From Flavobacteriales bacterium (GTDB lineage Bacteria > Bacteroidota > Bacteroidia > UBA10329), in NCBI GenBank assembly GCA_021741075.1, contig JAIOYO010000002.1, positions 28,848 through 92,847 of the forward strand: DNA of 64,000 nt. Direction: 5' to 3'. The first letter of the stretch is position 1; each line of letters opens with the position of its first letter. Position numbers and translations under genes: made by a program. The notes under the pieces are model-generated. The model did no database searches. It was not told where the DNA came from and saw only the letters and a program-made list of their open reading frames with translations. Below are positions 22,093 to 46,931 of this stretch, in pieces.

Positions 22093-22968
22093 ATGACAAT
22101 CCAAAATCCTCAGGTTTTTACTGACAAGCAACTCCAACGCCATTTTGATGACTTCGGGTTTGTGCGAATTAATTTGCTCAATCTGGAGGAAACAGAGGAG
22201 CTGTTAAATTCTTATGAAGCACTTCCCCGCCCACGAGAATCTGGGTTTCACTGTACTATGTTTAGTCCAGATGCGGATTTGAAAACGTCAGTCGATTCCA
22301 TTATTAAAAACGCTTTGGTTGAAAAACTGAAACCACACTTTAAACAACACACTGCTCTGTATGGAAATTTTATGGTGAAAGAGCCAGGAGAAGAAAGCGA
22401 CTGGTTTGTGCACCAAGATTGGACCTATGTGGATGAAGCACAACATGTAAGTGTTGCCGTTTGGGTCCCACTAGTCGACCTCACCGAGAAAAACGGTGTT
22501 CTGTGTGTTGTTCCTGGTTCCCAAAAGATTCCAAATACGGTTAGAGGCCCAGGGGTGCATGATCCGTGGACAGATTTGCATCAAGTCATCAAAGAAGAAT
22601 ATCACGAAAAAGTTTTTCTAAAAGCAGGAGAAGCTATAGTGTGGCACCATCGTTTGGTTCACTTCTCGCCACCAAACATGTCTGATGAGCCCAGAATTGC
22701 AGCAACGCTTATCTGCACTCCAACCAATGTGCCGGTGTATCACTACTGGAAAGATCCATTGCAACAAGGAACTTTGGCCAGAAAATACCAGGTCGATTGC
22801 CGTTTTTTCATGAACTATGACATTGTGAATGAGCCAGCTAATGTGCCGTTTTCAGGACTGGTAGACAGCCACTTCCCAGATTTGGACCTGAACAGACTGA
22901 AGTCATTTTCCAATGAGCCTGTCGATGCTAGCTTTGTACACGGACCTCCACTGACAACCAATGCATAG
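22093..22968 (+). CDS. PhyH-family Fe(II)/2-oxoglutarate dioxygenase
   Basis: HQDWTYVDE (HxD facial triad) ... HHRLVHFSPPN distal His. Confidence 0.7.
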   Translation: MTIQNPQVFTDKQLQRHFDDFGFVRINLLNLEETEELLNSYEALPRPRESGFHCTMFSPDADLKTSVDSIIKNALVEKLKPHFKQHTALYGNFMVKEPGEESDWFVHQDWTYVDEAQHVSVAVWVPLVDLTEKNGVLCVVPGSQKIPNTVRGPGVHDPWTDLHQVIKEEYHEKVFLKAGEAIVWHHRLVHFSPPNMSDEPRIAATLICTPTNVPVYHYWKDPLQQGTLARKYQVDCRFFMNYDIVNEPANVPFSGLVDSHFPDLDLNRLKSFSNEPVDASFVHGPPLTTNA

Positions 22969-23812
22969 ACGGGTATTAAAAGATGCTGAGCTGCAAGCCA
23001 GATTCGATCAGGACGGATTTGTGGTCATTGATATGTTCTCAAATCAAGAATTCAACGAGTTGAAATCGATTCTGAGCCAGCTCAATGAGGAGAAGAAAGA
23101 CCTACAGTTCAATATCAATACCGATTACAAACTCAGTTTTTTCAGCACAGAACCTAATTATAGGAAACAGGTATTCAATTCGATTAGCGCGTTCTGCATG
23201 CCTGTTGTAAGTCGGTTTTTGGATGAATATGAACCGCTCATCGTGAACACGTTTGACAAGGAACCTGGCGAAGGAGAAGTACCCATTCATCAGAATTGGA
23301 CATTCGTTGATGAATCGAAGGCCACTTCCGTATCGGTTTGGATACCGATGATAGACACCACACGCGTCAACGGAACAATGGAGGTGGTGAAAGGCAGCCA
23401 TCGCGTTCTTTCAAGCTATCGTAGTCCCTCTATTCCGTGGGTGTTTGAAAACCTGCGGCATGAGATCAGAACCAAGTACATGGAACCGATTGATGCAAAG
23501 GTCGGTCAGGCCGTGATTCTGGATGATAGTATTCTGCATTACACCTCGCAAAATGATAGTGAAACCGTTCGGTCGGCCATTCAGCTGATTATGAAACCGA
23601 ACGATGTGCCTGCCATTCATTATCACATACCTTCCACCAGCTCTGTTGGTGTAGATGTATATGAGGTGGATTGGGAATTTTTCACACGGTTCAATATGAA
23701 TGAACCTCCTACAGGTGTGAAAAAGGTAGATGAATTGACCATCCACCAACATTTCCTTACCGAAGCTGAATTGGTTGATAGGATTGCACCATTGAAAGTC
23801 GCTGATCGCTGA
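22961..23812 (+). CDS. PhyH-family dioxygenase paralog with HxN variant of the iron motif
   Basis: IHQNWTFVDE aligns to the HxDW..VDE motif of its neighbours but carries Asn in place of Asp. Distal His in ILHYTSQN. Overlaps the upstream gene by 8 nt. Confidence 0.6.
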   Translation: MHRRVLKDAELQARFDQDGFVVIDMFSNQEFNELKSILSQLNEEKKDLQFNINTDYKLSFFSTEPNYRKQVFNSISAFCMPVVSRFLDEYEPLIVNTFDKEPGEGEVPIHQNWTFVDESKATSVSVWIPMIDTTRVNGTMEVVKGSHRVLSSYRSPSIPWVFENLRHEIRTKYMEPIDAKVGQAVILDDSILHYTSQNDSETVRSAIQLIMKPNDVPAIHYHIPSTSSVGVDVYEVDWEFFTRFNMNEPPTGVKKVDELTIHQHFLTEAELVDRIAPLKVADR

Positions 23813-23815
23813 CCT

Positions 23816-25384
23816 ATGCCAACATCCGGTTTAGCCAAATCCTTCATTGATTTGAAAACACTTGACGAGCGTGGTTTCACGTTGGTTTCCGCTCTTTCGC
23901 TAAAGGACATACTGAACCTGTTGATATTTTTCGATAAGCATCCTCATACTTCGAAGGGAGGCTCGTTTCATTCCACCATGGAACAGACAGAAGTTGACTA
24001 CAAGAAAATGGTTGACGAAAAGCTAAAGTCTGTTCTTAGTGACCAGATAGAACTGATGCTGCCGGGTCATGAGATCCTGTTCGGCAACTTTTTGGTGAAA
24101 GAGCCCGGGGCGAGCGGAAGTGTGGGTATTCACACCGATTGGTCGTATGTTGACGAATCCGTTCACACGTCATACAACCTCTGGATTCCTTTGACGGATG
24201 TGAATGAGCACAACGGATGTCTACATGTGTGGCCCGAAAGTCACAGGTTCACTCCACGTGTACGGACAACCCCCTATGTTCCGTTCAGCACTAAAGAGCA
24301 GCAAATGGTCCAGTTCAACTCTGTAGCGGTTCTATTATCTGCAGGACAGGGAGTGCTCTACCATAGCGGCCTTCTTCATTATTCCAACCCGAACAATACA
24401 CCAGATAATAGACCGGCCATTGCCTTGGTCATTGTTCCGAAGGGCGCACAACCGATGCATTACTATCGGCCAGAGCCGAACGGGTCAGAAGTGGAAGTCC
24501 ACAAGGTGGACCGCTCGTTTTTCCTTACGCACCTGCCTCAGTCCCGACCAACAGGAACCAAATTAGTGAAGACTGACGAAGTGCCGGTGTTCACATTAAG
24601 TACCGAAAGCGTACTGGAATCAGATGCTACGCAAACCAAGGTTTCTAACTACTATGACGAGTGGACCGGGGCTTACAGGGATATTTATGGAGATGTAATC
24701 CAAGCATTCCGTCCGAAAGATGAGACCGCTCTTCTCAACTATATCATGCACAGCGCTAGGATTGAAAACGGCCAAAGGATAGTCGATGCCGGTTGCGGCA
24801 TCTGCGGTCCTGCCATTTACTTCGCTCAGAACCGGGCGGTGCACATTGAGGCCATTACCCTATCGGGCGTGCAGACATCGATTGCAAACGAACGTATTTC
24901 TGCGGCCGGTCTACAAGAACTGATAACCTGCACTCAAGGCGATTTCCGGCTAATGGATTCTCTTGTAACCAGCGGAATGGATGGTGTCATCTTCTTAGAA
25001 TCGCTGGGGCATAGCACCAATGCACAAATGGCCATTCTGGCAGCCTACAGGGTGCTAAGGACGGGCGGCTTCATCTACATAAAGGACTTTTTTCCGCGAG
25101 AGTCGGCCAATCCAGAGATTCAACAGCGTATCGATAAAACAATAGACAACATCAATCGAGCATATAACTATGCCGTGCTCGACCTGAATAAGACATTGAG
25201 CCACCTTCGGAAAGCAGGGTTTGTAATAGATTTCATTCAAAGCCTGAACTTTGAAAGCGATACAGAAATTAGACGCAATTTTGAATCACAACACGGCATA
25301 TCGGTTTTCGAAGGAGGGGAGTTTATGCCAGCAGAGTGGCTCGAAATAAGGGCTGTTAAATATTTTGAGGAGGATGATAGATAA
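23816..25384 (+). CDS. fusion protein: PhyH-family dioxygenase (N) plus class I SAM-dependent methyltransferase (C)
   Basis: N-terminal half has GIHTDWSYVDE ... LLHYSNPN. C-terminal half has MTase motif I RIVDAGCGICGPAIYFA and post-I acidic/Rossmann pattern. Confidence 0.7.
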   Translation: MPTSGLAKSFIDLKTLDERGFTLVSALSLKDILNLLIFFDKHPHTSKGGSFHSTMEQTEVDYKKMVDEKLKSVLSDQIELMLPGHEILFGNFLVKEPGASGSVGIHTDWSYVDESVHTSYNLWIPLTDVNEHNGCLHVWPESHRFTPRVRTTPYVPFSTKEQQMVQFNSVAVLLSAGQGVLYHSGLLHYSNPNNTPDNRPAIALVIVPKGAQPMHYYRPEPNGSEVEVHKVDRSFFLTHLPQSRPTGTKLVKTDEVPVFTLSTESVLESDATQTKVSNYYDEWTGAYRDIYGDVIQAFRPKDETALLNYIMHSARIENGQRIVDAGCGICGPAIYFAQNRAVHIEAITLSGVQTSIANERISAAGLQELITCTQGDFRLMDSLVTSGMDGVIFLESLGHSTNAQMAILAAYRVLRTGGFIYIKDFFPRESANPEIQQRIDKTIDNINRAYNYAVLDLNKTLSHLRKAGFVIDFIQSLNFESDTEIRRNFESQHGISVFEGGEFMPAEWLEIRAVKYFEEDDR

Positions 25385-26210
25385 GATTGCTTTTGACAGA
25401 TTGGTGTTCACAGACCCAGAATTGAATTCACGCTTCAAATCTGAAGGATATGTGATTGTCAAAGGGTTCCTGTCTGAAAACGAGGTGGAACGCCTTGCAA
25501 CGTTCTATGAAGAACATCCTTCTGAGAGACGTACTGGTTTTCACACGACACTGCACGACAGCCGACCTGATTATCGCGAGTCGGTAACGAATGAGGTGAA
25601 TGACGTGTTCTACCCCAAAGCACAGAAATTACTGGTTGGATATGAACCTGTTTTTTCGTGTTTTACAGTAAAAGAACAGGATGCAGAAAGCGGTTTTGAC
25701 CTTCACCTTGACTGGAGCATGGTGGATGAAAAACAGTTCACTTCTGTCACCATCTGGTCTCCACTTACAGACATCACAGATACAAACGGTCTACTCTGGG
25801 TTCTTCCTGGAAGCCACCAATTCGAATATACCATCCGTGGAGGACCTGGATTGAGACTGTGGTGCGAAAAGCCTGCGCATGAGTGTTCTCAACGTTTTTC
25901 CATCCTTGAGCTGAAGTTGGCAAAAGGAGACGCCATCATCTACGACCATCGGTTATTTCATGGGTCGCCACCAAATCAAAGTAATCAGCGAAGGGTAGCA
26001 ATCAACTATTCAAGTATTCCTATAGCTGCTGAGTCCTTGCACTACCTGTTCAATGGAGATTCAGAAGTGCGAAGCCGATGTATCTCTCCTAATTACTATC
26101 ATCATCATATCCTTGACTATCTAGAAAATTGTGGTTTATACATAAACCGTAAAGAAATTGGAGGCAGCTTTCTTACCCAATCAGATGTGAACACATTAGT
26201 TAGAGACTAG
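25365..26210 (+). CDS. PhyH-family Fe(II)/2-oxoglutarate dioxygenase
   Basis: DLHLDWSMVDE ... RLFHGSPPN. Overlaps the upstream gene. Confidence 0.7.
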   Translation: MRRMIDKIAFDRLVFTDPELNSRFKSEGYVIVKGFLSENEVERLATFYEEHPSERRTGFHTTLHDSRPDYRESVTNEVNDVFYPKAQKLLVGYEPVFSCFTVKEQDAESGFDLHLDWSMVDEKQFTSVTIWSPLTDITDTNGLLWVLPGSHQFEYTIRGGPGLRLWCEKPAHECSQRFSILELKLAKGDAIIYDHRLFHGSPPNQSNQRRVAINYSSIPIAAESLHYLFNGDSEVRSRCISPNYYHHHILDYLENCGLYINRKEIGGSFLTQSDVNTLVRD

Positions 26211-26274
26211 ACAGCGGCACCGTGACGAATGGAAATATAGCAATGAATCTTATTATAAGTCTAAGGCACCAAAT

Positions 26275-27966
26275 ATGCGTGCAATAATGGATACAAGAAG
26301 CACTAAAAACACAACCTGGTTGCGCTTTTTCATTTCGCTATTGTCGGTTTGTTCGTTGACGTTGCTGGTTCGCCTAATAATGGATGGTTGGTTTTATCAG
26401 ACGCAAAGTGACACAGTTTTCCCAACGTACATTTTCGGTTTATATAATGGTGGGACAAACGCAATGCCAGACACTTTTGGCTGTTTTTCAGGCATTTCGC
26501 ATGGTCTAAACGCCTTGTATCATGCGGGATTTCGCAATATTTATGATCATCTCCAGGTTATCCTAGTGACCTTATGCATGGTTTATTGGGTGTTTGTGCT
26601 TTTGCCAAACAACTGGAACTCAAAAGGCCCGAACGCATTCATTTTGGTGCCAATATTCATTCATCTTAGTGATTTGGTGTTGCCTTTTGAGTTTTCAAAA
26701 ACGGCCATGATTGTGTCTTTGACTGGATTTCATATTAGCAGTAACCGCGATGGATTCTTGTCTGCAGTTTTTGGTACTCTACTTATTTCCATTGGTTTTT
26801 GTATCAGGCCTGAGCCAGTAGTTATTATGCTAATCATGGCTTTGGCGCTATTTCCCTTGCAAGCCAGTCTCAAGTTTGTCAAACAAGGTGGTCGCACTTT
26901 GCTTTTAGCTGTATTGGCGATAGTTGGGCTAAGTCAATATTTTCTGAACTCAGACCGAACACCTTCAAACACACATTACAAAGAAATTAGACCATATGAA
27001 TACGCCCTTGTAGATTTTAGGAAAAACGATTTAGAACTCACCGACTTTGAACCTTCGGATCAAGCTAAGATAATAGCCGCTCAGAGCTTCTTTTTTGCGG
27101 ACAAAGAACAATTGAATGTGGCTTATTTTAAATCGATTGGAATTGCTCCGATAGACAAGAGTCCCGTTTCACTTGTTAAGTCATTTTTTAGGCCAAATTG
27201 GATTGCAGATGGATTGAAAAATTTTTGGAGGCGCACGTCTTCCATTAAATTTCATTTTTTCACCTTTTTGCTCTTGGTTCTAATTTTTTGGAATCAGCAC
27301 CGTCAGATTTCAATTTACCTACTATTAATCACAGCCCTCATTGTTGTTGTAAGCGTATTTCTGAAAACTGAGCATCACTTCATTACGACCATTATGATGG
27401 CAGCATTGCTACTAATTGGCACAAACGAAAATGTTGGAAACTCCGCCAACTACTCCCAAGGCAAGTTTTGGGCTCTTTGCCTCTTTTCTTTAGTATTAGC
27501 TGGATTTGCCTTAGCAGAAAAAAAAACAATCACCCAGTCCTCTAGCCAAAAACACAATTACTACGCGCATGTAGCCAACGAAGTAGAACATCTGAATCCA
27601 AATTCCTTGGTTTTGAACATTTCGTTTTGGGACAACCTTCATTACAAACTTTATGCTCCTATTCAACCATTACAACATGAAAGTATGTCGGTTCTTGACG
27701 GAGGCATTTTGTATTTAAACCAGGAGTATCAAGAAATAATACAAATAAAATCTGGAGAAAGTGAGTTCATTCTTCAATTTATGAACTTCGCCATAACCAA
27801 GCAAAAGATTTTCGTTTCATCTCAGAAAAGAATGGATTTAATCATTGATTATTTAAATACTGTACACGGTACTTCGCTTAGGTGTAGCCAGATTAAAACT
27901 TTCAAACTTGAGGATCAACAAACAGCTTGCGAAGAAATCGGACTATTTATGATTAAAGAAGTTTAG
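26275..27966 (+). CDS. integral membrane protein (N-terminal polytopic domain plus C-terminal soluble domain)
   Basis: 563 aa; about 10 TM helices in the first ~420 aa, then a hydrophilic C-terminus. No known motif. Confidence 0.45.
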   Translation: MRAIMDTRSTKNTTWLRFFISLLSVCSLTLLVRLIMDGWFYQTQSDTVFPTYIFGLYNGGTNAMPDTFGCFSGISHGLNALYHAGFRNIYDHLQVILVTLCMVYWVFVLLPNNWNSKGPNAFILVPIFIHLSDLVLPFEFSKTAMIVSLTGFHISSNRDGFLSAVFGTLLISIGFCIRPEPVVIMLIMALALFPLQASLKFVKQGGRTLLLAVLAIVGLSQYFLNSDRTPSNTHYKEIRPYEYALVDFRKNDLELTDFEPSDQAKIIAAQSFFFADKEQLNVAYFKSIGIAPIDKSPVSLVKSFFRPNWIADGLKNFWRRTSSIKFHFFTFLLLVLIFWNQHRQISIYLLLITALIVVVSVFLKTEHHFITTIMMAALLLIGTNENVGNSANYSQGKFWALCLFSLVLAGFALAEKKTITQSSSQKHNYYAHVANEVEHLNPNSLVLNISFWDNLHYKLYAPIQPLQHESMSVLDGGILYLNQEYQEIIQIKSGESEFILQFMNFAITKQKIFVSSQKRMDLIIDYLNTVHGTSLRCSQIKTFKLEDQQTACEEIGLFMIKEV

Positions 27967-28172
27967 TAGTGCACAAACTCATATGTGTTGATGATGCGCT
28001 TCGGCTGATTATTCCCGACATTCGTAACCGAGGATTTTTCTTATTCTGAGGTTTCCTGATTGGAACACAAAGTCTGCATTGTACAAACAAAATAAGAAAA
28101 GAAACAGCGTAATCAACCCTTGATTCATTGGATGCTATTAACGCCATTCGACTAAAACTTCTAGGTTAGCTA

Positions 28173-29036
28173 ATGAAACAAATGGCAAATGACATGTTAG
28201 ACTCGCTTAGTGTTGAAGACAAAAGCGTAACATACATTTCGGCCGCTCCTGAGAACCTACTGAAGTACGTGCAGCGAGCATGGCACATGAGGAGGTTCGT
28301 AATCACTCTTGCTAAAAGAGAAATTAAGGTTCGGCACGCCAACACGTACTTTGGTCTTTTATGGGTGCTGCTTCAGCCACTGCCTTCAATAATCGTTTTC
28401 ACCTTTTTTTTCGACCGAATTATTCAGGTGGATACAGGGGACGTTCCGTATTCCATTTTTGCGCTTATTGGACTAATTGGCTGGAATTATTTTACCTATT
28501 TATCGGTCTCGTTAGGCAACGTTTTATATGAGTCATCAGATTTAATAAAGAAGATCTATTTCCCTCGAATACTATTGCTTTTATCTCGCGTTCTGTCTGG
28601 TGCTTTGGAGTTCTCAATCTCACTTGTGTTGCTTATTTCAGCAATGTTGATTTTCGGAACTTATCCAGATTCATCATTTTTTTACTTCCCTTTCTTTATT
28701 GTGCTGAATATTCTATTTGGTTTGAGCATTGGCGTATGGCTCTGTATTCTTACCTACAAACGAAAGGACCTAATGCATGTAATTCCGATAATTATAAATT
28801 TTAGCATTTGGCTCACACCTGTTTTTTTTCCGACAACAGTTTTACCAAGCCATCTCGCTGACGTAATGTATATTAACCCAATGACCCTCATTTGCGAAGG
28901 TTATCGATTTGCGCTAGTAGGAGGTCCAGCTCCAGATTTAACCCACTTTGGGTCTGTTCCAGTTATGGTTGTTTTGTTATTATTAGGTTTAAATCAATTT
29001 CGAAAAATTGATTCTCGCATAGCTGAGCATTTATAG
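28173..29036 (+). CDS. ABC-2 type exporter permease (Wzm/TagG/KpsM-like)
   Basis: N-terminal RRFVITLAKREIKVRHANTYFGLLW matches the ABC-2 permease signature, with six TM helices. Confidence 0.7.
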   Translation: MKQMANDMLDSLSVEDKSVTYISAAPENLLKYVQRAWHMRRFVITLAKREIKVRHANTYFGLLWVLLQPLPSIIVFTFFFDRIIQVDTGDVPYSIFALIGLIGWNYFTYLSVSLGNVLYESSDLIKKIYFPRILLLLSRVLSGALEFSISLVLLISAMLIFGTYPDSSFFYFPFFIVLNILFGLSIGVWLCILTYKRKDLMHVIPIIINFSIWLTPVFFPTTVLPSHLADVMYINPMTLICEGYRFALVGGPAPDLTHFGSVPVMVVLLLLGLNQFRKIDSRIAEHL

Positions 29037-29098
29037 TTGATTCATATCATTTTTCACAGAGGCGTATTGGATAGCTTTGATTTAGTAAATTAAAATGA

Positions 29099-30736: not shown

Positions 30737-30745
30737 CATGTTTAA

Positions 30746-32092: not shown

Positions 32093-32126
32093 ATTTTCTA
32101 TTTAGGTTACTTTAATCAACGAACTT

Positions 32127-34812: not shown

Positions 34813-34909
34813 TTTTGAGAAATTCATTCAAATTGGCTTGATTGCAAGTTATATTTGAGACAATGCGATTTTACGGCTACGCGCAATAAATTCCGTTAAT
34901 TACTGGAAA

Positions 34910-36412: not shown

Positions 36413-37209
36413 CCCGCCTTAAACACGCTAGCAACGCCCCTGAGCTTTGGTTTGCAGATTTCGATGGAACTTATTTAGGAGAGCAAATCGATTTTCTACC
36501 CAAAGAACACGACCCTATATGCCATGAGTTAGAAAAACTATATCCCGAAATCCTTAAGGAAGTCTCTTTCTTGTGGGTAAACCCAAATGCTTTCAATAAT
36601 TATGATTTGTTTGACGACAAACAATTTCCTGTTGGGTCTTGGAAAAAGATAGTGCTCAAAGTCTGGGGTATAACTCTGAAGTCCAATAGCGCGCAATTTC
36701 CCATAATTGCTTCACTGCTTTTAAATTATCGCAAAAGAGTAACCAGTTGTCAAATTACGCGCCTTGCCCCCAACTCTCTAATTAAACCACACTGTGGAGA
36801 AACAAACTCAATTATAAGAATTCACTTAGGTCTCAATGTTCCAGATTGCTCAATAGAGGAGTGTGGAATCAGAGTTGGTGCATCAAAAAAGCAATGGAAC
36901 AACGGAAAAGTGCTTTGCTTTCTGGATGCCACAGACCACGAAGTTTGGAACAATTCACAGTTCTATAGGTATGTCTTAATAGTGGATGTCCTAAGGCCTG
37001 ATTTTCAATCCCGAGCTTCACTCATATGTTCCCGAATTATCATTTCCCAAGCAATTTTCATGGTTCTCATTAGCCTAAGGCTAAAAAAGCTGGCGCAAAT
37101 GATTCCTTCTCAAGTGCTTGCGTTTCTAGCACACATATTTCGATATCCGATAGCCCTTATTTCGTTCATTCTTAATTATCGAATAAATGATAGGGCAAAC
37201 CAACATTGA
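36409..37209 (+). CDS. aspartyl/asparaginyl beta-hydroxylase family Fe/2OG oxygenase (AspH/LpxO-like)
   Basis: HCGETNSIIRIHLGL matches the AspH/LpxO H-x-G-x-T-N-x-x-x-R-x-H-L-G-L motif. Confidence 0.6.
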   Translation: MTRLKHASNAPELWFADFDGTYLGEQIDFLPKEHDPICHELEKLYPEILKEVSFLWVNPNAFNNYDLFDDKQFPVGSWKKIVLKVWGITLKSNSAQFPIIASLLLNYRKRVTSCQITRLAPNSLIKPHCGETNSIIRIHLGLNVPDCSIEECGIRVGASKKQWNNGKVLCFLDATDHEVWNNSQFYRYVLIVDVLRPDFQSRASLICSRIIISQAIFMVLISLRLKKLAQMIPSQVLAFLAHIFRYPIALISFILNYRINDRANQH

Positions 37210-38836: not shown

Positions 38837-38908
38837 TTTTTTCGTCTTCTTCTATTTGAGCCTTTATAGATTTGACATTGGGAACCACCAGTTTCCTACC
38901 TTCTATCT

Positions 38909-40438: not shown

Positions 40439-40680
40439 ATTGCCCTTTGGAATTAACGCGTTTCATAGCATTACTAGCTTCAGAGTTTGACGATTTGGAC
40501 CCCAACATCATTGGGTCAGACAGTGTTTACAAGGAAGTGATCGAGTGGAACTCCATTAACTCGGTGGTGCTGTCCGTGATTATAGAGGCTGAGTTTGGGG
40601 TTTTACTTGAAAAGGAAGATTACCAGAAGGCCGTTACCGTTGCTGAATTACTTGAGTTGATTCAAACAAAAAGTGATTGA
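40435..40680 (+). CDS. acyl carrier protein-like (phosphopantetheine-binding)
   Basis: 81 aa, acidic, four-helix pattern. Candidate attachment Ser in IEWNSINSV. Coupled by a 4-nt overlap to the ligase. Confidence 0.5.
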   Translation: MNCPLELTRFIALLASEFDDLDPNIIGSDSVYKEVIEWNSINSVVLSVIIEAEFGVLLEKEDYQKAVTVAELLELIQTKSD

Positions 40681-40686
40681 AACTAA

Positions 40687-41709
40687 ATGGATAACGTTCG
40701 AATTGTCAGTATTGGGGCGGCCGTTCCTCAGAAAAAACTTCTGAGCTCTCAGGTTTCTTTCGAATCTGATGAAACAAGAAGTCAGTTTATCCGACAAGTT
40801 GGCGTTACAGAAAAGCGTTACTCACAAAACCGGCTTACAGCAGGAGACCTGTGCTTCTCGGCAGCACAAAAGTTGCTCACCGAGGTTGCATGGGATCCTT
40901 CTACAATTGGAGTTGTAATACTAGTCACGCAGTCGCCCGACAGACTTATGCCTGCAACGGCCATCTTATTGCAGGAAAAATTAGGATTGCCTTCTTCGTG
41001 CTTGGCGTTCGACATTAACTTAGGTTGCTCTGGTTGGGTATATGGGCTATCTGTGGTTAGTTCGCTAATGCAAACACTAAAAATTGACCGAGGTTTGCTG
41101 TTGGCTGGCGAAACGGCAGTGCTCGCTTCTGAAGATGATACAAGCTATTTCCCACTCATGGGTGATGCAGGAACCGCTACCGTTTTGGAACTGTCTATGC
41201 ATTCCGAACCTATGGTTTTCCAGTTCTACTCTGACGGAAGCCAGTTTGAGGCCATACATGCCCCCAACAGTGGTGCTCGCCATTTTGCAGATGGCGGAAC
41301 AGAAGCCGCCCAAAAGTACCGAGCTCAAATGGATGCGGATCAGGTATTGCGCTTTTGCTTGCGCGATGTGGTGCCAAACATACATTCCTTCTTGAACCAG
41401 CTGAATGTTACAGTTCAAGAAATAGATTACTTCGTATTCCATCAGGCCAACAAGCTCATTAACGAAGCTATGCGCAAAAAACTTAACATCCCAGAGGAAA
41501 AGTTTCCCTACTCTATTGGTCAATTTGGTAATACCTCATCTGCATCTATTCCACTTACCATGGTAACGCAGCTTCGCGAGCAAATGGCACATAAACAAAC
41601 GTTGCTTTGCTCTGGCTTCGGAGTTGGGCTTTCTATGGGACACGTGCTATTACACACAGAGAACATTATTTGCCATCCAATAATAGAGGTCGCAATTCCT
41701 GAAAAATGA
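40687..41709 (+). CDS. 3-oxoacyl-ACP synthase III (FabH/KAS III family)
   Basis: AFDINLGCSGWVYGL (active-site Cys) ... HQANKLIN (His) ... GNTSSASIP (Asn). These are the FabH Cys-His-Asn triad motifs. Confidence 0.75.
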   Translation: MDNVRIVSIGAAVPQKKLLSSQVSFESDETRSQFIRQVGVTEKRYSQNRLTAGDLCFSAAQKLLTEVAWDPSTIGVVILVTQSPDRLMPATAILLQEKLGLPSSCLAFDINLGCSGWVYGLSVVSSLMQTLKIDRGLLLAGETAVLASEDDTSYFPLMGDAGTATVLELSMHSEPMVFQFYSDGSQFEAIHAPNSGARHFADGGTEAAQKYRAQMDADQVLRFCLRDVVPNIHSFLNQLNVTVQEIDYFVFHQANKLINEAMRKKLNIPEEKFPYSIGQFGNTSSASIPLTMVTQLREQMAHKQTLLCSGFGVGLSMGHVLLHTENIICHPIIEVAIPEK

Positions 41710-42266
41710 AAATAAGTCACGGAAATACCGTACTCCGCAGCCTTGAAAACAAAGACCTTGAACGTGTGCGAAGCTGGCGCAATAACGAATCCGTAAACCA
41801 GCACCTTCTGAACAGGGAATACATCTCTATAGAGGCGCAGGCAAAGTGGTTCGAAAATATTGATGCTGAAACATCCCTTTATTGTATTGCAGAGGAAAGT
41901 GGCGTTCCTTTCGGATTGATTTACGCAACTGAAATAAACAAGGGAAAACGAACTTTTTGGGGAAACGTCTTAGTCGGGGAGCCTGCGTTTCGTAGCTCTG
42001 CTTTGCCTGTAAAGGCAGTGGTTATGCTCATGTGGTACTTTTTAGAAAATTTGGGGTTTGAAACCTGTTTTTCCAAGGTTGCGACTAGCAACTCTTCGGC
42101 ATTGCAACTAAATCAGCGACTCGGTTTTTTAACATTCAAAAAAGAAGGCGGCCTTTCGATTCAACGTTGTGAACGAGCACTGTACCATTCCAAGGCAGCA
42201 CGATTCTGGAAACCCCTGCTCGCCCACCATCAAATACGAGTATTTCAATCTGAACTTGATTTATGA
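41706..42266 (+). CDS. GNAT-family N-acyltransferase
   Basis: 186 aa with RimL/WecD-like GNAT fold pattern (..QLNQRLGF.. acyl-CoA binding motif A region). Confidence 0.55.
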   Translation: MKISHGNTVLRSLENKDLERVRSWRNNESVNQHLLNREYISIEAQAKWFENIDAETSLYCIAEESGVPFGLIYATEINKGKRTFWGNVLVGEPAFRSSALPVKAVVMLMWYFLENLGFETCFSKVATSNSSALQLNQRLGFLTFKKEGGLSIQRCERALYHSKAARFWKPLLAHHQIRVFQSELDL

Positions 42267-45200
42267 TGAGACCATTCTTTTTTCTGGTAGGGATAACGGT
42301 ACTATTTGTGTCTTGCGGCACACTACCGAATAAAAAGACCAAAGGGCCAATGTTTGAAGCTCTTTCCCCTCAGCAATCTGGTATTTTCTTTTCGAACGTG
42401 CTAGACGATACGCGCAGCATTCCTTCTGGGGCAGATTCATTAATGGAAAACCTCCCGTGGGGGATTAATGAGCTTATGTATAACTATGCTGGCGGGGGTG
42501 TTTCTGTAGCTGATATTAACAACAATGGGCTACCAGATATTTTCTTCACCAGCAATCAAGGAGAAGGAGCTCTTTACCTGAATTTGGGCGATTTTCGCTT
42601 CCAAGACATAACAAAGGAGTCCGGTTTAACATATCCTGCTGCGTGGGTTACAGGAACAGTGATGGCCGATGTAAATGGTGACGGCTTTATGGACATTTAT
42701 GTGTGTAGAGCGGGTAAGAAACCAATGTCAAACACCAGTAATCTTCTGTTTATCAATAACGGTAATCTAACATTTACTGAGCGAGCTGCCGAATATGGTC
42801 TCAACGATATTGGTCTGACTACAAGCGCCTCATTCTTCGACATGGATTTAGACGGAGATTTGGACGTCTATGTTTTGAACCAGCCTATTTTCGGTGAAGA
42901 AGACCCCACTAGTTTTCAATTTGAAATTTTACTTCCGCATGATTCATTAAGTGCCGACCGTCTTTATGAGAATGTTGGAAATCGATTTGTTGATGTGACG
43001 TTCCAAGCTGGACTACCGGTCGAAAAGGGCTCTGGTTTGGGCATCACCATATCAGATTTAGATATGGATGGCCTTCCAGACATTTTTGTGGCAAACGATT
43101 GGATTACGAATGATTTCGTTTACATCAATCAGGGTAACGGCAAATTTGAGAATCAGTGTGAAGAACTACTGCCACGAAATAGTTTTTTCAGCATGGGATG
43201 TGACATTGCAGATGTAGACAACAACGGCCGCCCAGATGTATTTGTATGCGATATGGCTCCGTATTCGCATTACAGAAGAAACATGATTCTTAACGGTGCA
43301 CCACAAGAGTATTATCAATTGCAAAAACGGTATAAAGGAGTAATGCAGTATAGTCGTAACATGCTTCATCTCAATTACCAAGGAGGTTTTCAGGAAACAG
43401 GAAATATGCACGGAATAGCACGCACAGATTGGAGCTGGAGCCCCCTTCTTGTGGATTTGGATAATGATGGTCTGAAAGACCTTTTCGTTACCAACGGCAT
43501 GAAACGAGATGTTGGAAATATGGACTTTGAAATGCTGATGTATGCGGACCTTGAAGGCGAGAGTTATAAAAGAGAGCGTGCCGAGCTAGTAAAAAACTAC
43601 CCGGTTTACAGGCTCCCCAATAGGGCCTTCCGCAACAATAGTGCTGGTCGCTGGATAGATGTGACAGATTCGTGGGGATTTGGCGGCCCTTTGAATACAC
43701 AAGGATCCGCTTATGCCGACCTAGACCTTGACGGAAACATCGACCTGATTTTGAATCCAACGGACAGTGTAGCACGCATTTACAAAAACCACGGAGATGA
43801 GAACAACCATCTGTCCATCAAAATACTAGGAGCAGGAAAAAACACATTAGGGCTAGGAACTAAAGTTTGGCTATTCAACAACGGAGAAACACATTTTTGT
43901 GAGCTTTCTAATGCACGCGGGTTTCAATCGTCTTCAGAACCCATTATTCATTTCGGGGTGGGAAAAGCTACTCTTATTGACAGTATTCGTGTGGTTTTTC
44001 CTTTGGGGTCTTATCAGGTATTGAAAAACGTACCTGTCCAGCAACGGATTACACTTACGGAAAATGGTTCAAACCCTCAACATTTGATTCCACTGGAAGA
44101 CGCAAATGATACTTGGTCAAACGCTACACACCGAATTATACCTGCTTTTAAACATAATCAACCCGACTTTTTTGACTTTGCTAGAGATAAGACTGCGTTT
44201 AGAATGTTTTCCCGTGAGGGACCGGCACTTGTGGTTGCAGACGTAAATGGCGACCTCCGCCAAGACTTTTTTGTAGGCGGCCAAGCCGGACAGCCATCAA
44301 GAATTTACATCCAAACTACATCGGGAGAATTCTTGTTGTCTAACCAACCAGAAATTGAAGCCGATAGCACATCGGCTGACGTAGACGCGGTTATTGTAGA
44401 CCTTAATGCAGACGGTTATCCCGATCTCTACGTGGCTAGTGGAAGTAACCTGTTCCCTATTAGTGACGAGCGCTACCTTGACCGGCTTTATTTGAACAAT
44501 GGCAAGGGTCAGTTTAAACGGTGCAAAGACTGCTTAGAAGACATCCGTGTAAGTTCGGGATGTGTTGCTGCTCATGACGTGGATGATGACGGAATTCCTG
44601 AATTATTTGTAGGAGGTAGGGTAGTTCCTGGGACAGAAGGAATCATTCCCGAAAGCTACTTGCTTCAAAATTCAAACGGACGTTTTAGCTCAACTAGTAA
44701 TACGATTATTAAGAATCTACCAAGTGTTGGAATGGTAACTGACGCAATTTGGCATGACCTCAATACTGACGGAGAAAAAGAACTCATTGTGACATGTGAG
44801 TGGGAATCGCCAAAAGTGTACAAGTGGTCAAAAAATGTCTTCACAGAGTCCGCGGCTGAATTCGGCATAAATCTGCCAAACGGACTGTGGACGAGTATTT
44901 CCGTTTGCGATGCAAATGCCGATGGTAAACAAGACCTCTTGTTTGGAAATTGGGGGCTTAACTCCATCCTGACCGCAGACGTAAAGAAACCACTAAAGCT
45001 CTTAATCAACGATTTTGACGGAAACGGAAAGCAAGAGCCACTGTTATGCATCTATTTGAACGACACCTTAGACTCGTTCCTCGGGAGAAACGAAATCTGT
45101 GGAGCAATGCCGCAATTCTGGAGAAAGTACAACACCTACCAAAGTTTTGCGACCACACCACTAACTAATAAGTTTGGATTGGCGACAATTGATAATTCTG

Positions 45201-45574
45201 AGTATCGAACTGTAAATGAACTCCAATCTACCCTTATGATGAACAGTGAGTCTGGCAAATACACACAAAAATCATTGCCTTTTGGTTGTCAAGCAGCTTC
45301 AATTAATGCAGCTATTACGTTAAATGGCGACAAACGCCCTATTCTATTCGGAGGTAACGAAAGTTTGCATTATACCGAGGGAGCAATTGATGCGCTCGGG
45401 GTTCGACTTCTCAGCTTGTCTGAATCAAATATCTTGCAAATACAGTCACCTAAACTAGGCGAGTTATTTCCATTATTCCGCAATGTGAGTAGCGCAGAAA
45501 TTATTTCCATTAATGGGGAGGAGTTCATTCTTGTCGCACGGCCATCAAATGAGTTGTTACTAGTAAAGCCTTGA
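42263..45574 (+). CDS. CRTAC1-family lipoprotein: multiple FG-GAP/VCBS repeats plus ASPIC/UnbV domain
   Basis: Lipobox VLFVSCGT. Many D-x-N-x-DG-x-x-D loops (DINNNGLPDIF, DVNGDGFMDIY, DMDLDGDLDVY ...) and a central UnbV_ASPIC-like segment (GLGTKVWLFNNGETHFCE...). Paralog of 14593..16989. Confidence 0.65.
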   Translation: MMRPFFFLVGITVLFVSCGTLPNKKTKGPMFEALSPQQSGIFFSNVLDDTRSIPSGADSLMENLPWGINELMYNYAGGGVSVADINNNGLPDIFFTSNQGEGALYLNLGDFRFQDITKESGLTYPAAWVTGTVMADVNGDGFMDIYVCRAGKKPMSNTSNLLFINNGNLTFTERAAEYGLNDIGLTTSASFFDMDLDGDLDVYVLNQPIFGEEDPTSFQFEILLPHDSLSADRLYENVGNRFVDVTFQAGLPVEKGSGLGITISDLDMDGLPDIFVANDWITNDFVYINQGNGKFENQCEELLPRNSFFSMGCDIADVDNNGRPDVFVCDMAPYSHYRRNMILNGAPQEYYQLQKRYKGVMQYSRNMLHLNYQGGFQETGNMHGIARTDWSWSPLLVDLDNDGLKDLFVTNGMKRDVGNMDFEMLMYADLEGESYKRERAELVKNYPVYRLPNRAFRNNSAGRWIDVTDSWGFGGPLNTQGSAYADLDLDGNIDLILNPTDSVARIYKNHGDENNHLSIKILGAGKNTLGLGTKVWLFNNGETHFCELSNARGFQSSSEPIIHFGVGKATLIDSIRVVFPLGSYQVLKNVPVQQRITLTENGSNPQHLIPLEDANDTWSNATHRIIPAFKHNQPDFFDFARDKTAFRMFSREGPALVVADVNGDLRQDFFVGGQAGQPSRIYIQTTSGEFLLSNQPEIEADSTSADVDAVIVDLNADGYPDLYVASGSNLFPISDERYLDRLYLNNGKGQFKRCKDCLEDIRVSSGCVAAHDVDDDGIPELFVGGRVVPGTEGIIPESYLLQNSNGRFSSTSNTIIKNLPSVGMVTDAIWHDLNTDGEKELIVTCEWESPKVYKWSKNVFTESAAEFGINLPNGLWTSISVCDANADGKQDLLFGNWGLNSILTADVKKPLKLLINDFDGNGKQEPLLCIYLNDTLDSFLGRNEICGAMPQFWRKYNTYQSFATTPLTNKFGLATIDNSEYRTVNELQSTLMMNSESGKYTQKSLPFGCQAASINAAITLNGDKRPILFGGNESLHYTEGAIDALGVRLLSLSESNILQIQSPKLGELFPLFRNVSSAEIISINGEEFILVARPSNELLLVKP

Positions 45575-45578
45575 GTTT

Positions 45579-46931
45579 TTACTCAGCCGCAACAAGCCGT
45601 TTAAGCACGTGTTGACCAATCTTTTTTCCTTGTGCGATGCCGTCATCATTAGAAAAACGATAATGAATTCCACCGTATAGACGGCTGTTTGCCACTTCGT
45701 CTGAAGCCTCTTTAAAACTACCGAATGACCTAGGCGTTTTGCCGAAAGGAACCTCAAGGCTATCGGTGAATGCATAATTATTTCCAAAAAATTCAGTTAA
45801 AACCGTGGATGCTGCAGCAGAAATAGCGCTGTGTCCGCTAGTGTAGTCTGGAAAATGTGGGGTTTCAAGCAATGGTCTCCACTTAGGATCTATGTATCTG
45901 TTTATATACGTCTCTGGCCGTATCAATTGATAATGGTATTTGGTGTCCCACACGGAAATAAATCCATCGTGAAGCGCAATAGCCGTTATGGCGGTCCTAA
46001 ATGAGCTTTCGTGAAGGTCTAAGTTCTGTACTGTGCAAGCATTTCGAACCAAACCTATCCAGTGAGCCCCTGGGCTCATTTGCCGAACGGCCCTAATGGC
46101 ATGACCATCCCTCTTAGTGAGATATGGATTGCAATCCCAAAAATTCGCAATCTCCCGCTGTTCTAGCGTCAGTGTTTCAACTGTTTGTTGTACCTCTTTG
46201 GCGTAGTTATAGAATTCCGAACTTGAATCCGCGGAAAAAGTCACCCGAAAATCTGGTCTGTAAACCGAAGGTGAGTCCAATACGAAAGACCTAATCTTAT
46301 GCCACCAAGGGTCTAAGGCTTCGGAATACTTGGGTGGTGTTGGTTCCCATGCCCATGGCTCGTTTATAGTTACATACCGTGGCAGTGCTCGCATCTCAGC
46401 GAAACCATCTGCACGCATCCATTTAAGCAAATGCTCTTCTAGTTTACGGCATATTTCCATGGTGTATTCCACCTTATGGTTGCCGTATAAAGAACTAATT
46501 GAATCTGTGAAATGGGCGCTTAATTCATCTATCAATTGTGGATGAAAAACCCCCTCTCTCGCTAAAGAACAGAAAGCGTGTATTACCGCTAGTTCTACCA
46601 CATAATTGCTTGTATCCACATCCAAATCTGGAACACCATAGCCATTCAATCTTCCTGAAAAACCATTGTACTTGTTCTGCTTAATTGCAGTTGCTTCAAA
46701 GGCGGCTATGTTCGCATAAGCAAAGCACCTAGCTGCAGCAGGTGGCGAAAGGGTTCCAGCTATGGTTGCCTCGGTAAGCCGATGGTTTATTCGATTCAAA
46801 AGTTCATTGTTGCGTTTATTTGACTCCATCAACGAACCCACCTTGTGGTCACACCCATTGTGCGTCAAGGCCAAAAGCAGCAGACCAATCGAGATGAACG
46901 TTTTGTTGAGGGCTTGGATAAATTCAATCAT
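45579..46931 (-). CDS. PAP2-superfamily protein, vanadium-dependent haloperoxidase-like
   Basis: Three PAP2/V-HPO motifs in order: KYHYQLIRP (KxxxxxxRP), PDYTSGHS (PSGH), SRLYGGIHYRFSND (SRxxxGxH...D), preceded by a helical N-terminal domain of about 280 aa. Lipoprotein signal. Confidence 0.5.
   Translation of the reverse strand: MIEFIQALNKTFISIGLLLLALTHNGCDHKVGSLMESNKRNNELLNRINHRLTEATIAGTLSPPAAARCFAYANIAAFEATAIKQNKYNGFSGRLNGYGVPDLDVDTSNYVVELAVIHAFCSLAREGVFHPQLIDELSAHFTDSISSLYGNHKVEYTMEICRKLEEHLLKWMRADGFAEMRALPRYVTINEPWAWEPTPPKYSEALDPWWHKIRSFVLDSPSVYRPDFRVTFSADSSSEFYNYAKEVQQTVETLTLEQREIANFWDCNPYLTKRDGHAIRAVRQMSPGAHWIGLVRNACTVQNLDLHESSFRTAITAIALHDGFISVWDTKYHYQLIRPETYINRYIDPKWRPLLETPHFPDYTSGHSAISAAASTVLTEFFGNNYAFTDSLEVPFGKTPRSFGSFKEASDEVANSRLYGGIHYRFSNDDGIAQGKKIGQHVLKRLVAAE

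Follow-up and report, generated by a model that had tools for sequence, protein, structure and literature searches.

Several described systems share kinds of components with the locus reported here. Wzm/Wzt exporters, such as those of Aquifex aeolicus, E. coli O9a, and Klebsiella O12, consist of an ABC-2 permease and an ATPase with a sugar-binding domain. The same kinds of components as in our locus also make up the Arn and Gtr systems (ArnB/C/T and GtrA/B/C), the Group A carbohydrate system GacI-L, and the mycobacterial combination of Wzm/Wzt with Aft/Emb. Xanthomonas LPS cassettes place PhyH-family genes within a wzm/wzt-type LPS locus. The O-polysaccharide locus of Flavobacterium psychrophilum encodes its own acyl carrier protein (ACP), ketoacyl-ACP synthases, and acyltransferase (wfpC-wfpG), whose predicted role is N-acylation of a 4-amino-4,6-dideoxy sugar with 3,5-dihydroxyhexanoate (PMC6519341). 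The locus analyzed here, in a 64-kb stretch of DNA (the window) of a Flavobacteriales bacterium MAG, follows this generally familiar logic, but its mix of enzymes is without counterpart among characterized pathways. We give about even chances to the reading that it builds a lipid-linked surface glycoconjugate, tailors it, and exports it, by a pathway that is O-antigen-like or Arn/Gtr-like and carries an N-acylated amino sugar.

Organization and extent of the gene array

The array consists of 19 co-directional genes (g01 to g19) on the + strand at 22093-45574 and, as the initial annotation had described, is closed by a convergent gene (45579-46931). That annotation had counted 21 genes on one strand, most of them overlapping by 4 to 8 nt; in our recount about half of the junctions overlap (9/18), seven by 4 to 8 nt and two by 20 to 23 nt, and three further gene pairs are spaced by 6 nt or less. 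Nineteen same-strand genes with such tight junctions are far beyond chance. The single operon that had been proposed is nevertheless not supported. Across the window, TAnnTTTG, the -7 motif of Bacteroidota, is depleted, yet it occurs in or beside the gaps upstream of g01 (22077-22084), g07 (29072), g12, and g15 (38867 and 38904), and the array is thus probably divided into several transcription units.

The boundaries originally drawn (22093-46931) proved too narrow on the right. Genes at 50048-63916 and in the ~10 kb past the window recur within sister loci, which indicates, from these gene neighborhoods, that the locus extends over at least 52 kb and that we are looking at its left half. Profile annotation with Pfam and NCBIfam bore out every domain call made earlier (Table 1). 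It also agreed with the view that the array is not a recognized cluster: no array gene reached a curated NCBIfam cutoff, all matches falling below it, and the genes are therefore not assignable to already characterized pathways.

Table 1. Genes of the array (g) and of its right-hand extension (d)
Gene	Position	Strand	Assignment	Evidence
g01	22093..22968	+	PhyH-type Fe/2OG oxygenase	Pfam PF05721, E 1e-21; HxD...H triad in alignment
g02	22961..23812	+	PhyH-type oxygenase	Pfam, E 8.9e-16; variant triad H-Q-N in alignment
g03	23816..25384	+	PhyH domain fused to CMAS-like SAM methyltransferase	Pfam PhyH, E 1.7e-18; CMAS, E 3.5e-8
g04	25365..26210	+	PhyH-type oxygenase	Pfam, E 2.9e-23
g05	26275..27966	+	Polytopic membrane protein, 563 aa	~10 hydrophobic segments
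g06	28173..29036	+	Wzm-type ABC-2 permease	Pfam PF01061, E 8e-17
g07	29099..30736	+	Two PhyH domains	Pfam, two stretches, E 3.7e-37
g08	30738..32092	+	Wzt-type ATPase, ~200-aa C-terminal domain	E 4.4e-51 to Aquifex Wzt 6amx
g09	32127..32873	+	Small soluble GT2, ArnC-like catalytic domain	Pfam, E 1.6e-12
g10	32870..34288	+	Class B (B12-binding) radical SAM enzyme 1	Pfam; CxxxCxxC present
g11	34285..34812	+	Glutathione-peroxidase-type thiol peroxidase	Pfam GSHPx, E 1e-32
g12	34910..36412	+	Class B radical SAM enzyme 2	Pfam
g13	36409..37209	+	Membrane-anchored AspH/OlsC/LpxO-like hydroxylase	Pfam, E 7e-36
g14	37187..38836	+	GT-C fold glycosyltransferase of a family without Pfam model	
g15	38909..40438	+	ANL-family adenylating ligase	Pfam AMP-binding, E 4.9e-54
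g16	40435..40680	+	Acyl carrier protein	PP-binding, E 0.0016 (under cutoff); N-S-I serine motif
g17	40687..41709	+	KAS III (FabH-like), Cys-His-Asn motifs	Pfam; E 8e-53 to 4efi
g18	41706..42266	+	GNAT N-acyltransferase, PseH-like	Pfam; PseH model, E 5.6e-15 (under cutoff)
g19	42263..45574	+	FG-GAP/ASPIC (CRTAC1-like) lipoprotein	Pfam FG-GAP_3, E 7.5e-65; UnbV_ASPIC; lipobox
g20	45579..46931	-	Vanadium-dependent haloperoxidase lipoprotein	E 1e-103 to Zobellia VIPO 4CIT
d3	50048..51034	+	LPG_synthase_TM flippase-like membrane protein	Pfam, E 1.9e-24
d4	51113..52021	+	Membrane-anchored c-type cytochrome	Pfam
d5	52047..53624	-	Polytopic membrane protein, weakly DUF6056/GT_STM0557_N (GtrC-like)	Pfam, 26.4 bits (cutoff 27)
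d6	53635..55344	+	Polytopic membrane protein, 569 aa	Orthologs within the L137 and L053 loci
d7	55482..56612	+	DegT/WecE-like sugar 4-aminotransferase	Pfam, E 1.6e-63
d8	56539..57552	+	ArnC/GtrB/PgfS-like GT2, two predicted C-terminal TM helices	
d9-d10	57489..59625	+	UbiA-like prenyltransferase (weak) and DXD glycosyltransferase	NCBIfam prenyltransferase, E 4e-12; Gly_transf_sug
d11-d13	59698..63916	.	Three paralogous radical SAM enzymes, N-terminal twitch/SPASM domain	Pfam

Conservation of the locus

Comparison of gene neighborhoods revealed that the array recurs as a unit, collinear in loci L137 and L138 and in shuffled versions on at least six further contigs (L053, L054, L052, L004, L135, and L136). 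All contigs carrying the locus belong to uncultured Bacteroidota, and no cultured organism with it was found. Identity to L138 is mosaic, reaching 80 to 86% for g17 to g20 versus 39 to 44% for g14 and g05, a pattern that we would regard as typical of variable surface-glycan loci. Sister loci also carry DprE1/DprE2-like, UbiA, GFO_IDH_MocA, DegT, and carbamoyltransferase genes, which are typical of sugar pathways.

Oxidative, methyl, and acyl tailoring genes

Pfam places the six predicted PhyH domains in g01, g02, the N terminus of g03, g04, and, twice, g07, and the predicted SAM methyltransferase is the fusion partner in g03. This fusion, which has weak cyclopropane-fatty-acid synthase matches in NCBIfam, is also present in L138. 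Orthologs of g04 (66% in L138, 51% in L137) and g07 (56 to 62%) occur in both collinear loci. The Xanthomonas cassettes differ in having one or two PhyH genes, against six to nine domains here; the passage that describes them names no B12 radical SAM, GT-C, or haloperoxidase genes. Both B12 radical SAM enzymes, the peroxidase, and the AspH/LpxO-like hydroxylase were likewise recovered by Pfam. The top NCBIfam matches of g10 (BchE, HpnJ, and PhpK) are all far under cutoff, and the best solved relative of g12 is AprD4 (E 8e-21); ortholog clusters of g12 at 50% identity or more number ~50, all from metagenomes or MAGs. The peroxidase g11 sits with radical SAM genes in seven sister loci. Like the lipid acyl 2-hydroxylases LpxO and OlsC, g13 has an Asp_Arg_Hydrox domain and a C-terminal membrane anchor (two predicted TM segments), but it is not an equivalog, since the best named model, OlsC, scores 75 bits against a cutoff of 450.

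The acyl-AMP ligase, ACP, KAS III, and GNAT called earlier were all confirmed by Pfam, with the sub-cutoff ACP match noted in Table 1; that ACP is kept between the ligase and KAS III in four loci. The closest solved relatives of the ligase reach only E 1e-22. As in F. psychrophilum (PMC6519341), an ACP of its own, a ketoacyl-ACP synthase, and an acyltransferase would be encoded in a surface-glycan locus. However, the transferase is a GNAT here and a PglD homologue there, an ANL ligase supplies the starter and no ketoreductase is encoded here, and export here is by Wzm/Wzt, in contrast to the Wzy polymerase-dependent route of F. psychrophilum.

Exporter, glycosyltransferases, and membrane proteins

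The proposed ABC-2 permease and Wzt ATPase with a C-terminal extension stood up, whereas a binding role for the extension is weakly indicated and g08 has no usable in-frame start. The frame of g08 that includes the Walker A motif contains no ATG, GTG, or TTG before 31058; an ATG at 30738, one base past the stop of the preceding gene, misses this frame by one A in the run of six A residues at 30744-30749. The extra domain occupies the place of the sugar-binding domain in the described Wzm/Wzt systems, but its similarity is marginal (Wzt_C, E 0.011; Aquifex Wzt sugar-binding domain, E 0.2), so a role in sugar binding is suggested only weakly. KpsM and Wzm models match the permease under cutoff. 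In contrast to the described systems, no WecA-type initiator, polymerizing transferases, or WbdD-type terminator were found in the locus; in the 64-kb window and 10 kb beyond, we saw no initiating phosphoglycosyltransferase and no obvious polymerizing GT4 or large GT2.

The GT2 and polytopic membrane proteins expected in the array were found, g09 by Pfam and g05 and g14 as polytopic or GT-C proteins. The ArnC model matches g09 under cutoff (E 2e-16), and no TM segment is predicted for it. Whereas g14 has a GT-C fold, profile comparison gave no link to GT-C for g05, d5, or d6. No family was found in Pfam or NCBIfam for g05, which has orthologs in L137, L138, and L053, and d6 had no Pfam match.

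The right-hand extension adds further components. The flippase-like d3 (TIGR00374, 40.3 bits; cutoff, 43.2) has orthologs within the clusters of L137 and L053, a 40% ortholog of d4 adjoins the g12 counterpart in L053, and a 45% ortholog of d5 lies within the L137 array. The aminotransferase d7 scores 322 bits with the WecE model (cutoff, 375), and DegT genes recur in seven sister loci. Full-length matches of d8 to PgfS (E 8e-37) and ArnC (E 2.4e-31) are both under cutoff, and the d9-d10 pair adjoins Wzm in L054. The radical SAM enzymes d11 to d13, of which d12 matches NF033640 at 182 bits (cutoff, 170), presumably belong to the unit; two further copies of this type lie past the window. With Arn/Gtr-type systems, the locus thus shares a DegT aminotransferase, an ArnC/GtrB-like GT2 with C-terminal TM helices, a GT-C transferase, a weakly GtrC-like protein, a flippase-like membrane protein, and a UbiA-like gene. 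It differs in that no component reaches an equivalog cutoff, GtrA and ArnE/F are absent, the place of the single transferase is taken by several unrelated polytopic proteins, and a large oxidative tailoring set is added.

The haloperoxidase and CRTAC1-like pair

Both lipoprotein assignments at the end of the array held. Sequence comparison indicates that g20 is a true vanadium haloperoxidase homologue: it aligns with the Zobellia galactanivorans vanadium iodoperoxidase over 402 residues and conserves the vanadate-site motifs (K/R, SGH, R/H). Unlike that enzyme, g20 is a lipoprotein with a fixed place at the end of a biosynthetic array, and haloperoxidase genes of its type are paired with a g19-like gene in four loci (L052, L138, L006, and L007).

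Proposed pathway and alternative explanations

Starting from the domain identities, the GT-C fold of g14, the homologies of Wzt and the haloperoxidase, and the conserved co-location, we assigned the following steps by enzyme family. The DegT/WecE-like transaminase would yield a nucleotide-linked 4-amino-4,6-dideoxy sugar. A carboxylic acid loaded by g15 onto g16 would be extended by g17 and transferred as an acyl group to the amino sugar by g18. The ArnC-like GT2 enzymes (g09 and d8) could then pass sugars to polyprenyl phosphate or to a growing lipid-linked glycan. On the cytoplasmic side, the six PhyH domains, the fused methyltransferase, g13, and the two B12 radical SAM enzymes may introduce hydroxyl and methyl groups or rearrange carbons, with the co-encoded peroxidase (g11) limiting peroxide damage. 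Wzm/Wzt would export the lipid-linked product, its C-terminal domain possibly recognizing a terminal decoration. At the periplasmic face, g14, and probably other large polytopic proteins, would add sugars from polyprenyl-phosphate donors, and the haloperoxidase and CRTAC1-like lipoproteins may act on the product outside the cytoplasm.

The initial annotation had pointed to an exported modified glycoconjugate, and the components fit (Wzm/Wzt, ArnC-like GT2s, GT-C, WecE-like aminotransferase, and acyl-ACP/N-acyltransferase genes); the product could be a polymer, a glycolipid, or a modified protein. The domain content, the match of Wzt to the Aquifex O-antigen exporter (E 4e-51), the full-length ArnC and PgfS matches and two C-terminal TM helices of d8, the WecE score of d7, and the PseH-like g18 argue for the glycoconjugate reading. 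So do the collinear and shuffled sister loci with their added sugar-pathway genes, the mosaic identity to L138, and the precedents of the F. psychrophilum acyl genes and the Xanthomonas PhyH cassettes. Against it stand the lack of an initiator or polymerizing transferase, the start and frame problem and weak C-terminal domain of g08, the polytopic proteins without a GT-C link, and the sub-cutoff NCBIfam matches.

The product may instead be a discrete exported glycolipid or lipo-oligosaccharide, Nod-factor-like or a lipid A/aminolipid-type modification, and not a polymer, which we consider rather unlikely. Here, the acyl chain of an N-acyl amino sugar lipid would receive hydroxyl and methyl groups before the lipid is exported by an ABC-2 transporter related to NodIJ, DrrAB, and KpsMT. 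Several of the tailoring enzymes have a lipid-directed look (the OlsC/LpxO-like hydroxylase with its TM anchor, the CMAS-like methyltransferase, and PhyH, a family founded on an enzyme for a branched acyl chain), NodI models match g08 at E 2e-26, and the extended locus, like L054, has a carbamoyltransferase gene; the missing polymerase and initiator also suit a discrete glycolipid. However, Wzt is nearest to O-antigen and teichoic acid exporters, the presence of several GT2 enzymes, a GT-C enzyme, and further polytopic proteins suggests multiple sugar transfers at the outer face, and the transferases diverge in a mosaic manner similar to serotype-type variation.

We regard as improbable a third reading, in which Fe/2OG hydroxylases (PhyH and AspH, with JmjC in sister loci) and B12 radical SAM methylases decorate residues of a secreted protein or peptide that GT-C enzymes then glycosylate in the periplasm, as do PMT, OST, DPY19, and TfpW. 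The AspH and JmjC/cupin_8 families do hold many protein hydroxylases, JmjC genes occur in L135 and L136, and DprE1/E2-like and UbiA genes similar to those of the sister loci accompany Pseudomonas pilin arabinosylation. Yet the intergenic gaps hold no precursor-like small ORF, there is no protease or leader-recognition protein, and the acyl-ACP/GNAT and aminotransferase modules would have no role.

Least likely is that several independent small operons (oxygenases, transporter, lipid module, and haloperoxidase) with no common product lie side by side by chance or by inheritance within the lineage. The -7 motifs, the differing module content (L052 and L004 lack PhyH and ABC genes within 10 kb, and L053, L135, and L136 lack the acyl module), and the close relationship of L138, through which part of the synteny is simply inherited, would fit this reading. 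However, distant radical SAM homologues (<43% identity) have none of these neighbors, many junctions overlap by 4 nt, counterparts of d3, d5, and d6 are interleaved with array genes in L137, and these families remain associated in at least eight loci despite reshuffling, at 25 to 70% identity.

Organization and extent of the locus

An ORF listing placed the genes g01 to g19 consecutively on one strand with the convergent gene g20 behind them, which agrees with the co-directional array and closing gene of the initial annotation except that the array has 19 genes and not 21. Overlaps, which had been ascribed to most junctions, were found at 9 of 18, with 3 more gene pairs lying within 6 nt of each other. 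The domain calls were all borne out by Pfam profiles (table). When the array genes were compared with NCBIfam, none reached a curated cut-off. An Rfam scan returned no elements, and a tandem-repeat scan was likewise empty.

The array had been taken to end at 46931 as a complete unit; however, the locus runs on past this point. Its only other record, a Logan contig (assembly of SRR12088350), extends beyond the window. Orthologues of d3, d5, and d6, which lie to the right of the array, are located within the array of L137, a sister-locus contig. In addition, the core of a second such contig, L054, is flanked by recurring genes (carbamoyltransferase, a 396-aa protein, CN_hydrolase, and DegT, along with a UbiA/DXD-glycosyltransferase pair). 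Thus, the locus spans at least 52 kb. The twitch/SPASM radical SAM paralogues at its far end total five. A carbamoyltransferase, a weak PP-loop protein of ~397 aa, and a CN_hydrolase form a conserved trio; the latter two resemble a split NAD-synthetase-type amidotransferase, for which a sugar acid might be the amidation target. Between the haloperoxidase gene and the remaining locus sits a CydA-like gene, with a membrane ORF of 62 aa ahead of it and no adjoining CydB; the sister locus L138 carries no such gene at the same position.

The genes left of 22093 are mostly unrelated-looking (peptidases, YdjM, a MacB-like ABC system, and what by eye looks like HemB), with two exceptions. One is a trio that is similar to the GT2/DegT pairs of the sister loci L135 and L136. 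The other is a second FG-GAP/ASPIC protein, after which come a MacB-like ABC pair and two secreted paralogues, each of ~148 aa and without a Pfam match.

Features of the locus and its surroundings. Positions are those of the window unless a contig is named; L139 is the stretch used for the part past the right edge. Scores are bits versus cut-off unless given as E values.
Feature	Position	Strand	Assignment	Top named NCBIfam model or score
GT2, DegT aminotransferase, Amidohydro_2	10594-13565	-	trio; GT2 of 245 aa	
Second ASPIC protein and following genes	14593-20050		FG-GAP/ASPIC, 798 aa	
g01-g19	22093-45574	+	array	
g01, g02, g03 (N-terminal half), g04, g07 (twice)		+	PhyH (Pfam)	
g02	22961-23812	+		
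g03		+	fused CMAS-type SAM methyltransferase (Pfam)	
g06		+	ABC-2 permease (Pfam)	
g08		+	Wzt	Wzt/RfbE, 158.7 vs 400
g09		+	GT2 (Pfam)	ArnC, E 2e-16
g10, g12		+	B12-binding radical SAM (Pfam)	g10: BchE/HpnJ/PhpK; BchE 154 vs 481
g11		+	glutathione peroxidase (Pfam)	
g13		+	Asp_Arg_Hydrox (Pfam); two predicted TM segments at C-terminus	OlsC, 75.4 vs 450; LpxO, 44.6 vs 500
g14	37187-38836	+	GT-C fold transferase	
g15-g18		+	AMP-binding ligase, carrier protein, KAS III, GNAT (Pfam)	g18: PseH, 56 vs 93
g19		+	FG-GAP/ASPIC, 1103 aa, lipoprotein signal	
g20	45579-46931	convergent	V-haloperoxidase-like	
CydA-like gene	47072-48556		cytochrome bd subunit I	
d3	from 50048		flippase-like LPG_synthase_TM protein	40.3 vs 43.2
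d4	from 51113		c-type cytochrome	
d5	from 52047	-	polytopic; weak DUF6056/GT_STM0557_N (GtrC-like)	
d6	from 53635		polytopic, 569 aa	
d7	from 55482		WecE-like aminotransferase	322 vs 375
d8	from 56539		ArnC/PgfS-like GT2, two TM helices	
d9	from 57489		UbiA-like	
d10	from 58795		DXD glycosyltransferase	
d11-d13	59698-63916		three radical SAM proteins with N-terminal twitch domain	d12: above NF033640 cut-off
Two further twitch radical SAM genes	L139 1-3424		beyond window (Logan contig)	
Carbamoyltransferase, weak PP-loop protein, CN_hydrolase	L139 5222-8896; L054 1-3387		conserved trio; L139 copy beyond window (Logan contig)	
Seventh PhyH gene, GT2, GFO_IDH_MocA oxidoreductase			beyond window (Logan contig)	
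DprE1/DprE2-like pair	L135 2448-4778; L136 1163-3515		FAD_binding_4 (ALO) oxidase beside short-chain dehydrogenase	
TAnnTTTG matches listed	20967, 22077, 22929, 29072, 34810, 34850, 38867, 38904, 55429	+	-7 motif	

Conservation in sister loci

The initial annotation had made its case for a unit depend on conservation in relatives, and the array proved to be conserved. L138 is collinear with the window, in the order PhyH-methyltransferase, PhyH, TM protein, Wzm, double PhyH, Wzt, GT2, first radical SAM, glutathione peroxidase, GT-C, ligase, ACP, KAS III, GNAT, ASPIC protein, and haloperoxidase (- strand); it differs in that g12 is missing at its window position and the AspH gene (g13) is relocated. 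Compared over 26275-46931 of the window, the two show a mosaic of identity: g17 to g20 (KAS III, GNAT, ASPIC protein, and haloperoxidase) share 80 to 86%, but g14 and g05, both polytopic, share 39 to 44%. L137 is also collinear, at 40 to 70% identity. The same families recur in changed order in L053, L054, L052/L005, L004, L135, and L136. At least 8 PhyH domains are found in L135, and both L135 and L136 additionally carry JmjC genes and a DprE1/DprE2-like pair. This pair, together with the UbiA gene of L054, hints at polyprenyl-phospho-pentose donors.

Orthologues sharing at least 50% identity with g12 fell into ~50 clusters, all of them from metagenomes or MAGs and, where named, from Bacteroidota or Chitinophagales; no cultured carrier of the locus is known. 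More distant radical SAM relatives (at most 43% identity, among the matches listed in a metagenome scan with the g12 profile) had no neighbors in common with the window.

Tailoring enzymes

Alignment of the six PhyH domains of the array revealed an HxD...H triad in five, while g02 has HQN. The domains share 20 to 32% identity with one another, and their nearest solved relatives (PHYHD1, PHYH, and EvdO2) are marginal. Halogenases of the PhyH fold have H-x-A/G in place of the H-x-D/E...H triad. Every triad here is HxD or HxN and none of the six is HxA/G, so we rejected halogenation by these domains. We found no clear orthologue of g02 in the sister loci; this paralogue might lack activity or coordinate iron in another way.

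Both g10 and g12 are class B radical SAM proteins, with an N-terminal B12-binding domain (PF02310) and a radical SAM core of the CxxxCxxC type (PF04055), and neither reached the cut-off of a named subfamily. The nearest solved relative of g12 is the diol dehydratase AprD4; thus, methylation is not the sole possible chemistry. The hydroxylase g13 has no equivalog-level match to OlsC or LpxO. Two known pathways were considered and rejected: an HpnI/J/L-type cyclitol pathway, for which HpnI was unmatched and HpnJ scored far under its cut-off, and phosphonate tailoring, prompted by weak PhpK and PhnY matches, for which PEP mutase was not seen.

The Wzm/Wzt exporter

The permease g06 (Wzm) matches PF01061 with 61.9 bits (cut-off, 26.9). 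The ATPase domain of g08 (Wzt) aligns to Aquifex Wzt with an E value of 4.4e-51 and has the Walker A, signature, and Walker B motifs; its score against the Wzt/RfbE model lies too far below the cut-off for g08 to be an equivalog. Two independent weak signals connect the C-terminal domain of g08 to sugar binding domains of this type, namely a match to Wzt_C (E value of 0.011; 16 bits versus a cut-off of 30.4) and a profile comparison with the Aquifex sugar-binding domain (E value of 0.2). A homologue search with this domain recovered only the query itself, and its single-sequence AF2 model was unusable (pLDDT of 41.8).

The frame of wzt that includes Walker A is open from 30746, yet its first in-frame ATG, GTG, or TTG comes only at 31058. 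An ATG at 30738, one base past the g07 stop, would come into this frame were the A6 run (30744-30749) one A longer (A7). The Logan contig, an independent assembly, is the same as the window across this stretch, and wzt orthologues start with an ordinary ATG. Phase-variable expression, ribosomal slippage, loss of the gene's function, use of a non-canonical start, or an error in the assembly could each account for the offset.

Glycosyltransferases, acyl module, and haloperoxidase

The GT-C fold transferase g14 belongs to a family of proteins of 520 to 570 aa, for which a search of 1.84 billion proteins gave 1,075 representatives with an E value no worse than 1e-3, and Pfam matched none of 10 sampled members. 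The polytopic proteins g05, d5, and d6 are unrelated, and neither hhalign nor an HMM built from 148 sequences tied them to the GT-C family of g14. With its two C-terminal TM helices, d8 has the make-up of a polyprenyl-phosphate sugar synthase; its matches to ArnC and PgfS are full-length, with scores under the equivalog cut-offs. We found no dedicated GtrA or ArnE/F flippase; d3 is flippase-like, with a score just under the cut-off.

In the acyl module, g17 is FabH-like, with the Cys-His-Asn motifs present, and g15 has no close characterized relative. A flexirubin, dialkylresorcinol, or aryl-polyene cluster was rejected, as g17 matches DarB with an E value of only 2.9e-7 (30 bits versus a cut-off of 550). 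The V-haloperoxidase-like closing gene proved to encode a true vanadium haloperoxidase: g20 aligns to the Zobellia iodoperoxidase 4CIT with an E value of 1e-103 and has intact vanadate-site motifs (WDxKY..LIRPE, TSGHS, and SRxYGGIHYR), whose residues we take to act in vanadate binding.

Proposed pathway and alternatives

The domain identities are established, as are the GT-C fold assigned to g14, the homologies of Wzt and of the haloperoxidase, and a co-location that is conserved; around these we infer an order of events for an exported, tailored surface glycoconjugate. The WecE-like transaminase would supply a nucleotide-linked 4-amino-4,6-dideoxy sugar; an acyl group built by the ligase, ACP, and KAS III would be set on its amine by the GNAT; and GT2 enzymes would load sugars onto polyprenyl phosphate. 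Tailoring of the lipid-linked intermediate in the cytoplasm would fall to the PhyH and AspH-like enzymes, the methyltransferase, and the B12 radical SAM enzymes, under the protection of the peroxidase, and export would go through Wzm/Wzt. Outside, the GT-C and related polytopic proteins would add more sugars, and the haloperoxidase and CRTAC1-like lipoproteins would act last. For the N-acyl step, the O-polysaccharide locus of F. psychrophilum offers a described analogue (PMC6519341).

Pfam annotation of the window plus 10 kb beyond it (~75 kb) contained no initiating phosphoglycosyltransferase and no polymerizing cytoplasmic glycosyltransferases, which counts against a polymeric product, although both could be encoded in another part of the genome. 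That the product is instead a discrete exported glycolipid or lipo-oligosaccharide is possible, though doubtful. Slightly more doubtful is a Bacteroidota surface glycoconjugate of a novel class, in which PhyH enzymes would poly-hydroxylate the N-acyl amino-sugar units, B12 radical SAM enzymes would C-methylate or rearrange them, and the haloperoxidase/CRTAC1-like pair would halogenate or oxidatively cross-link them after export. If true, this would be the first haloperoxidase integral to envelope glycan maturation. Hydroxylation and glycosylation of a protein or peptide is quite unlikely. The intergenic gaps hold no precursor ORF, whereas RiPP or proteusin-type peptide modification would call for a precursor gene beside the modifying enzymes. 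It is very unlikely that the genes are side by side by accident, because the gene set recurs after reshuffling.

The logic of the locus, as an exported and decorated glycoconjugate system, is similar to ABC-dependent O-antigen export joined to periplasmic glycosylation of the Arn/Gtr type, and its assembly logic, in which a lipid-linked sugar is exported by an ABC-2 transporter and decorated by GT-C enzymes, is already known. Because no equivalog threshold was reached, the locus works like these systems while being a member of no named one. Xanthomonas LPS cassettes of the wzm/wzt type likewise contain PhyH genes. The tailoring set combines 6 to 9 PhyH domains and an OlsC-like hydroxylase with two B12 radical SAM enzymes, several others of the N-twitch kind, and a fixed haloperoxidase pair; it has no characterized counterpart and recurs across uncultured Bacteroidota; in the literature, we found no description of this enzyme combination or of the fixed pair. 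As a lead, the locus is solid and conserved, and its enzymology is unusual. Solving its product would allow functions to be assigned to large unannotated families, including the Pfam-less GT-C family (~1,000 representatives), and a role to the PhyH genes of other LPS loci. It would also put new oxygenases and radical SAM enzymes for sugars or acyl chains on hand, and new envelope chemistry in abundant environmental bacteria might emerge.

Predicted promoters and transcription units

The Bacteroidota -7 consensus is TAnnTTTG, and we scanned the window for this motif. It is depleted about 2-fold, with 33 matches versus 60.8 expected. Between 22 and 46 kb, the + strand has nine matches, six of which fall within the 620 nt of intergenic DNA, where they precede g01, g07, g12 (two), and g15 (two); one further match lies 32 nt ahead of g02. 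The placement of the motif argues for at least four promoters and thus for a supra-operon, in place of the single operon initially proposed. Scans for sigma-70 promoters and terminators were uninformative. Across the window, the TAnnTTTG copies that remain cluster immediately 5' of gene starts.
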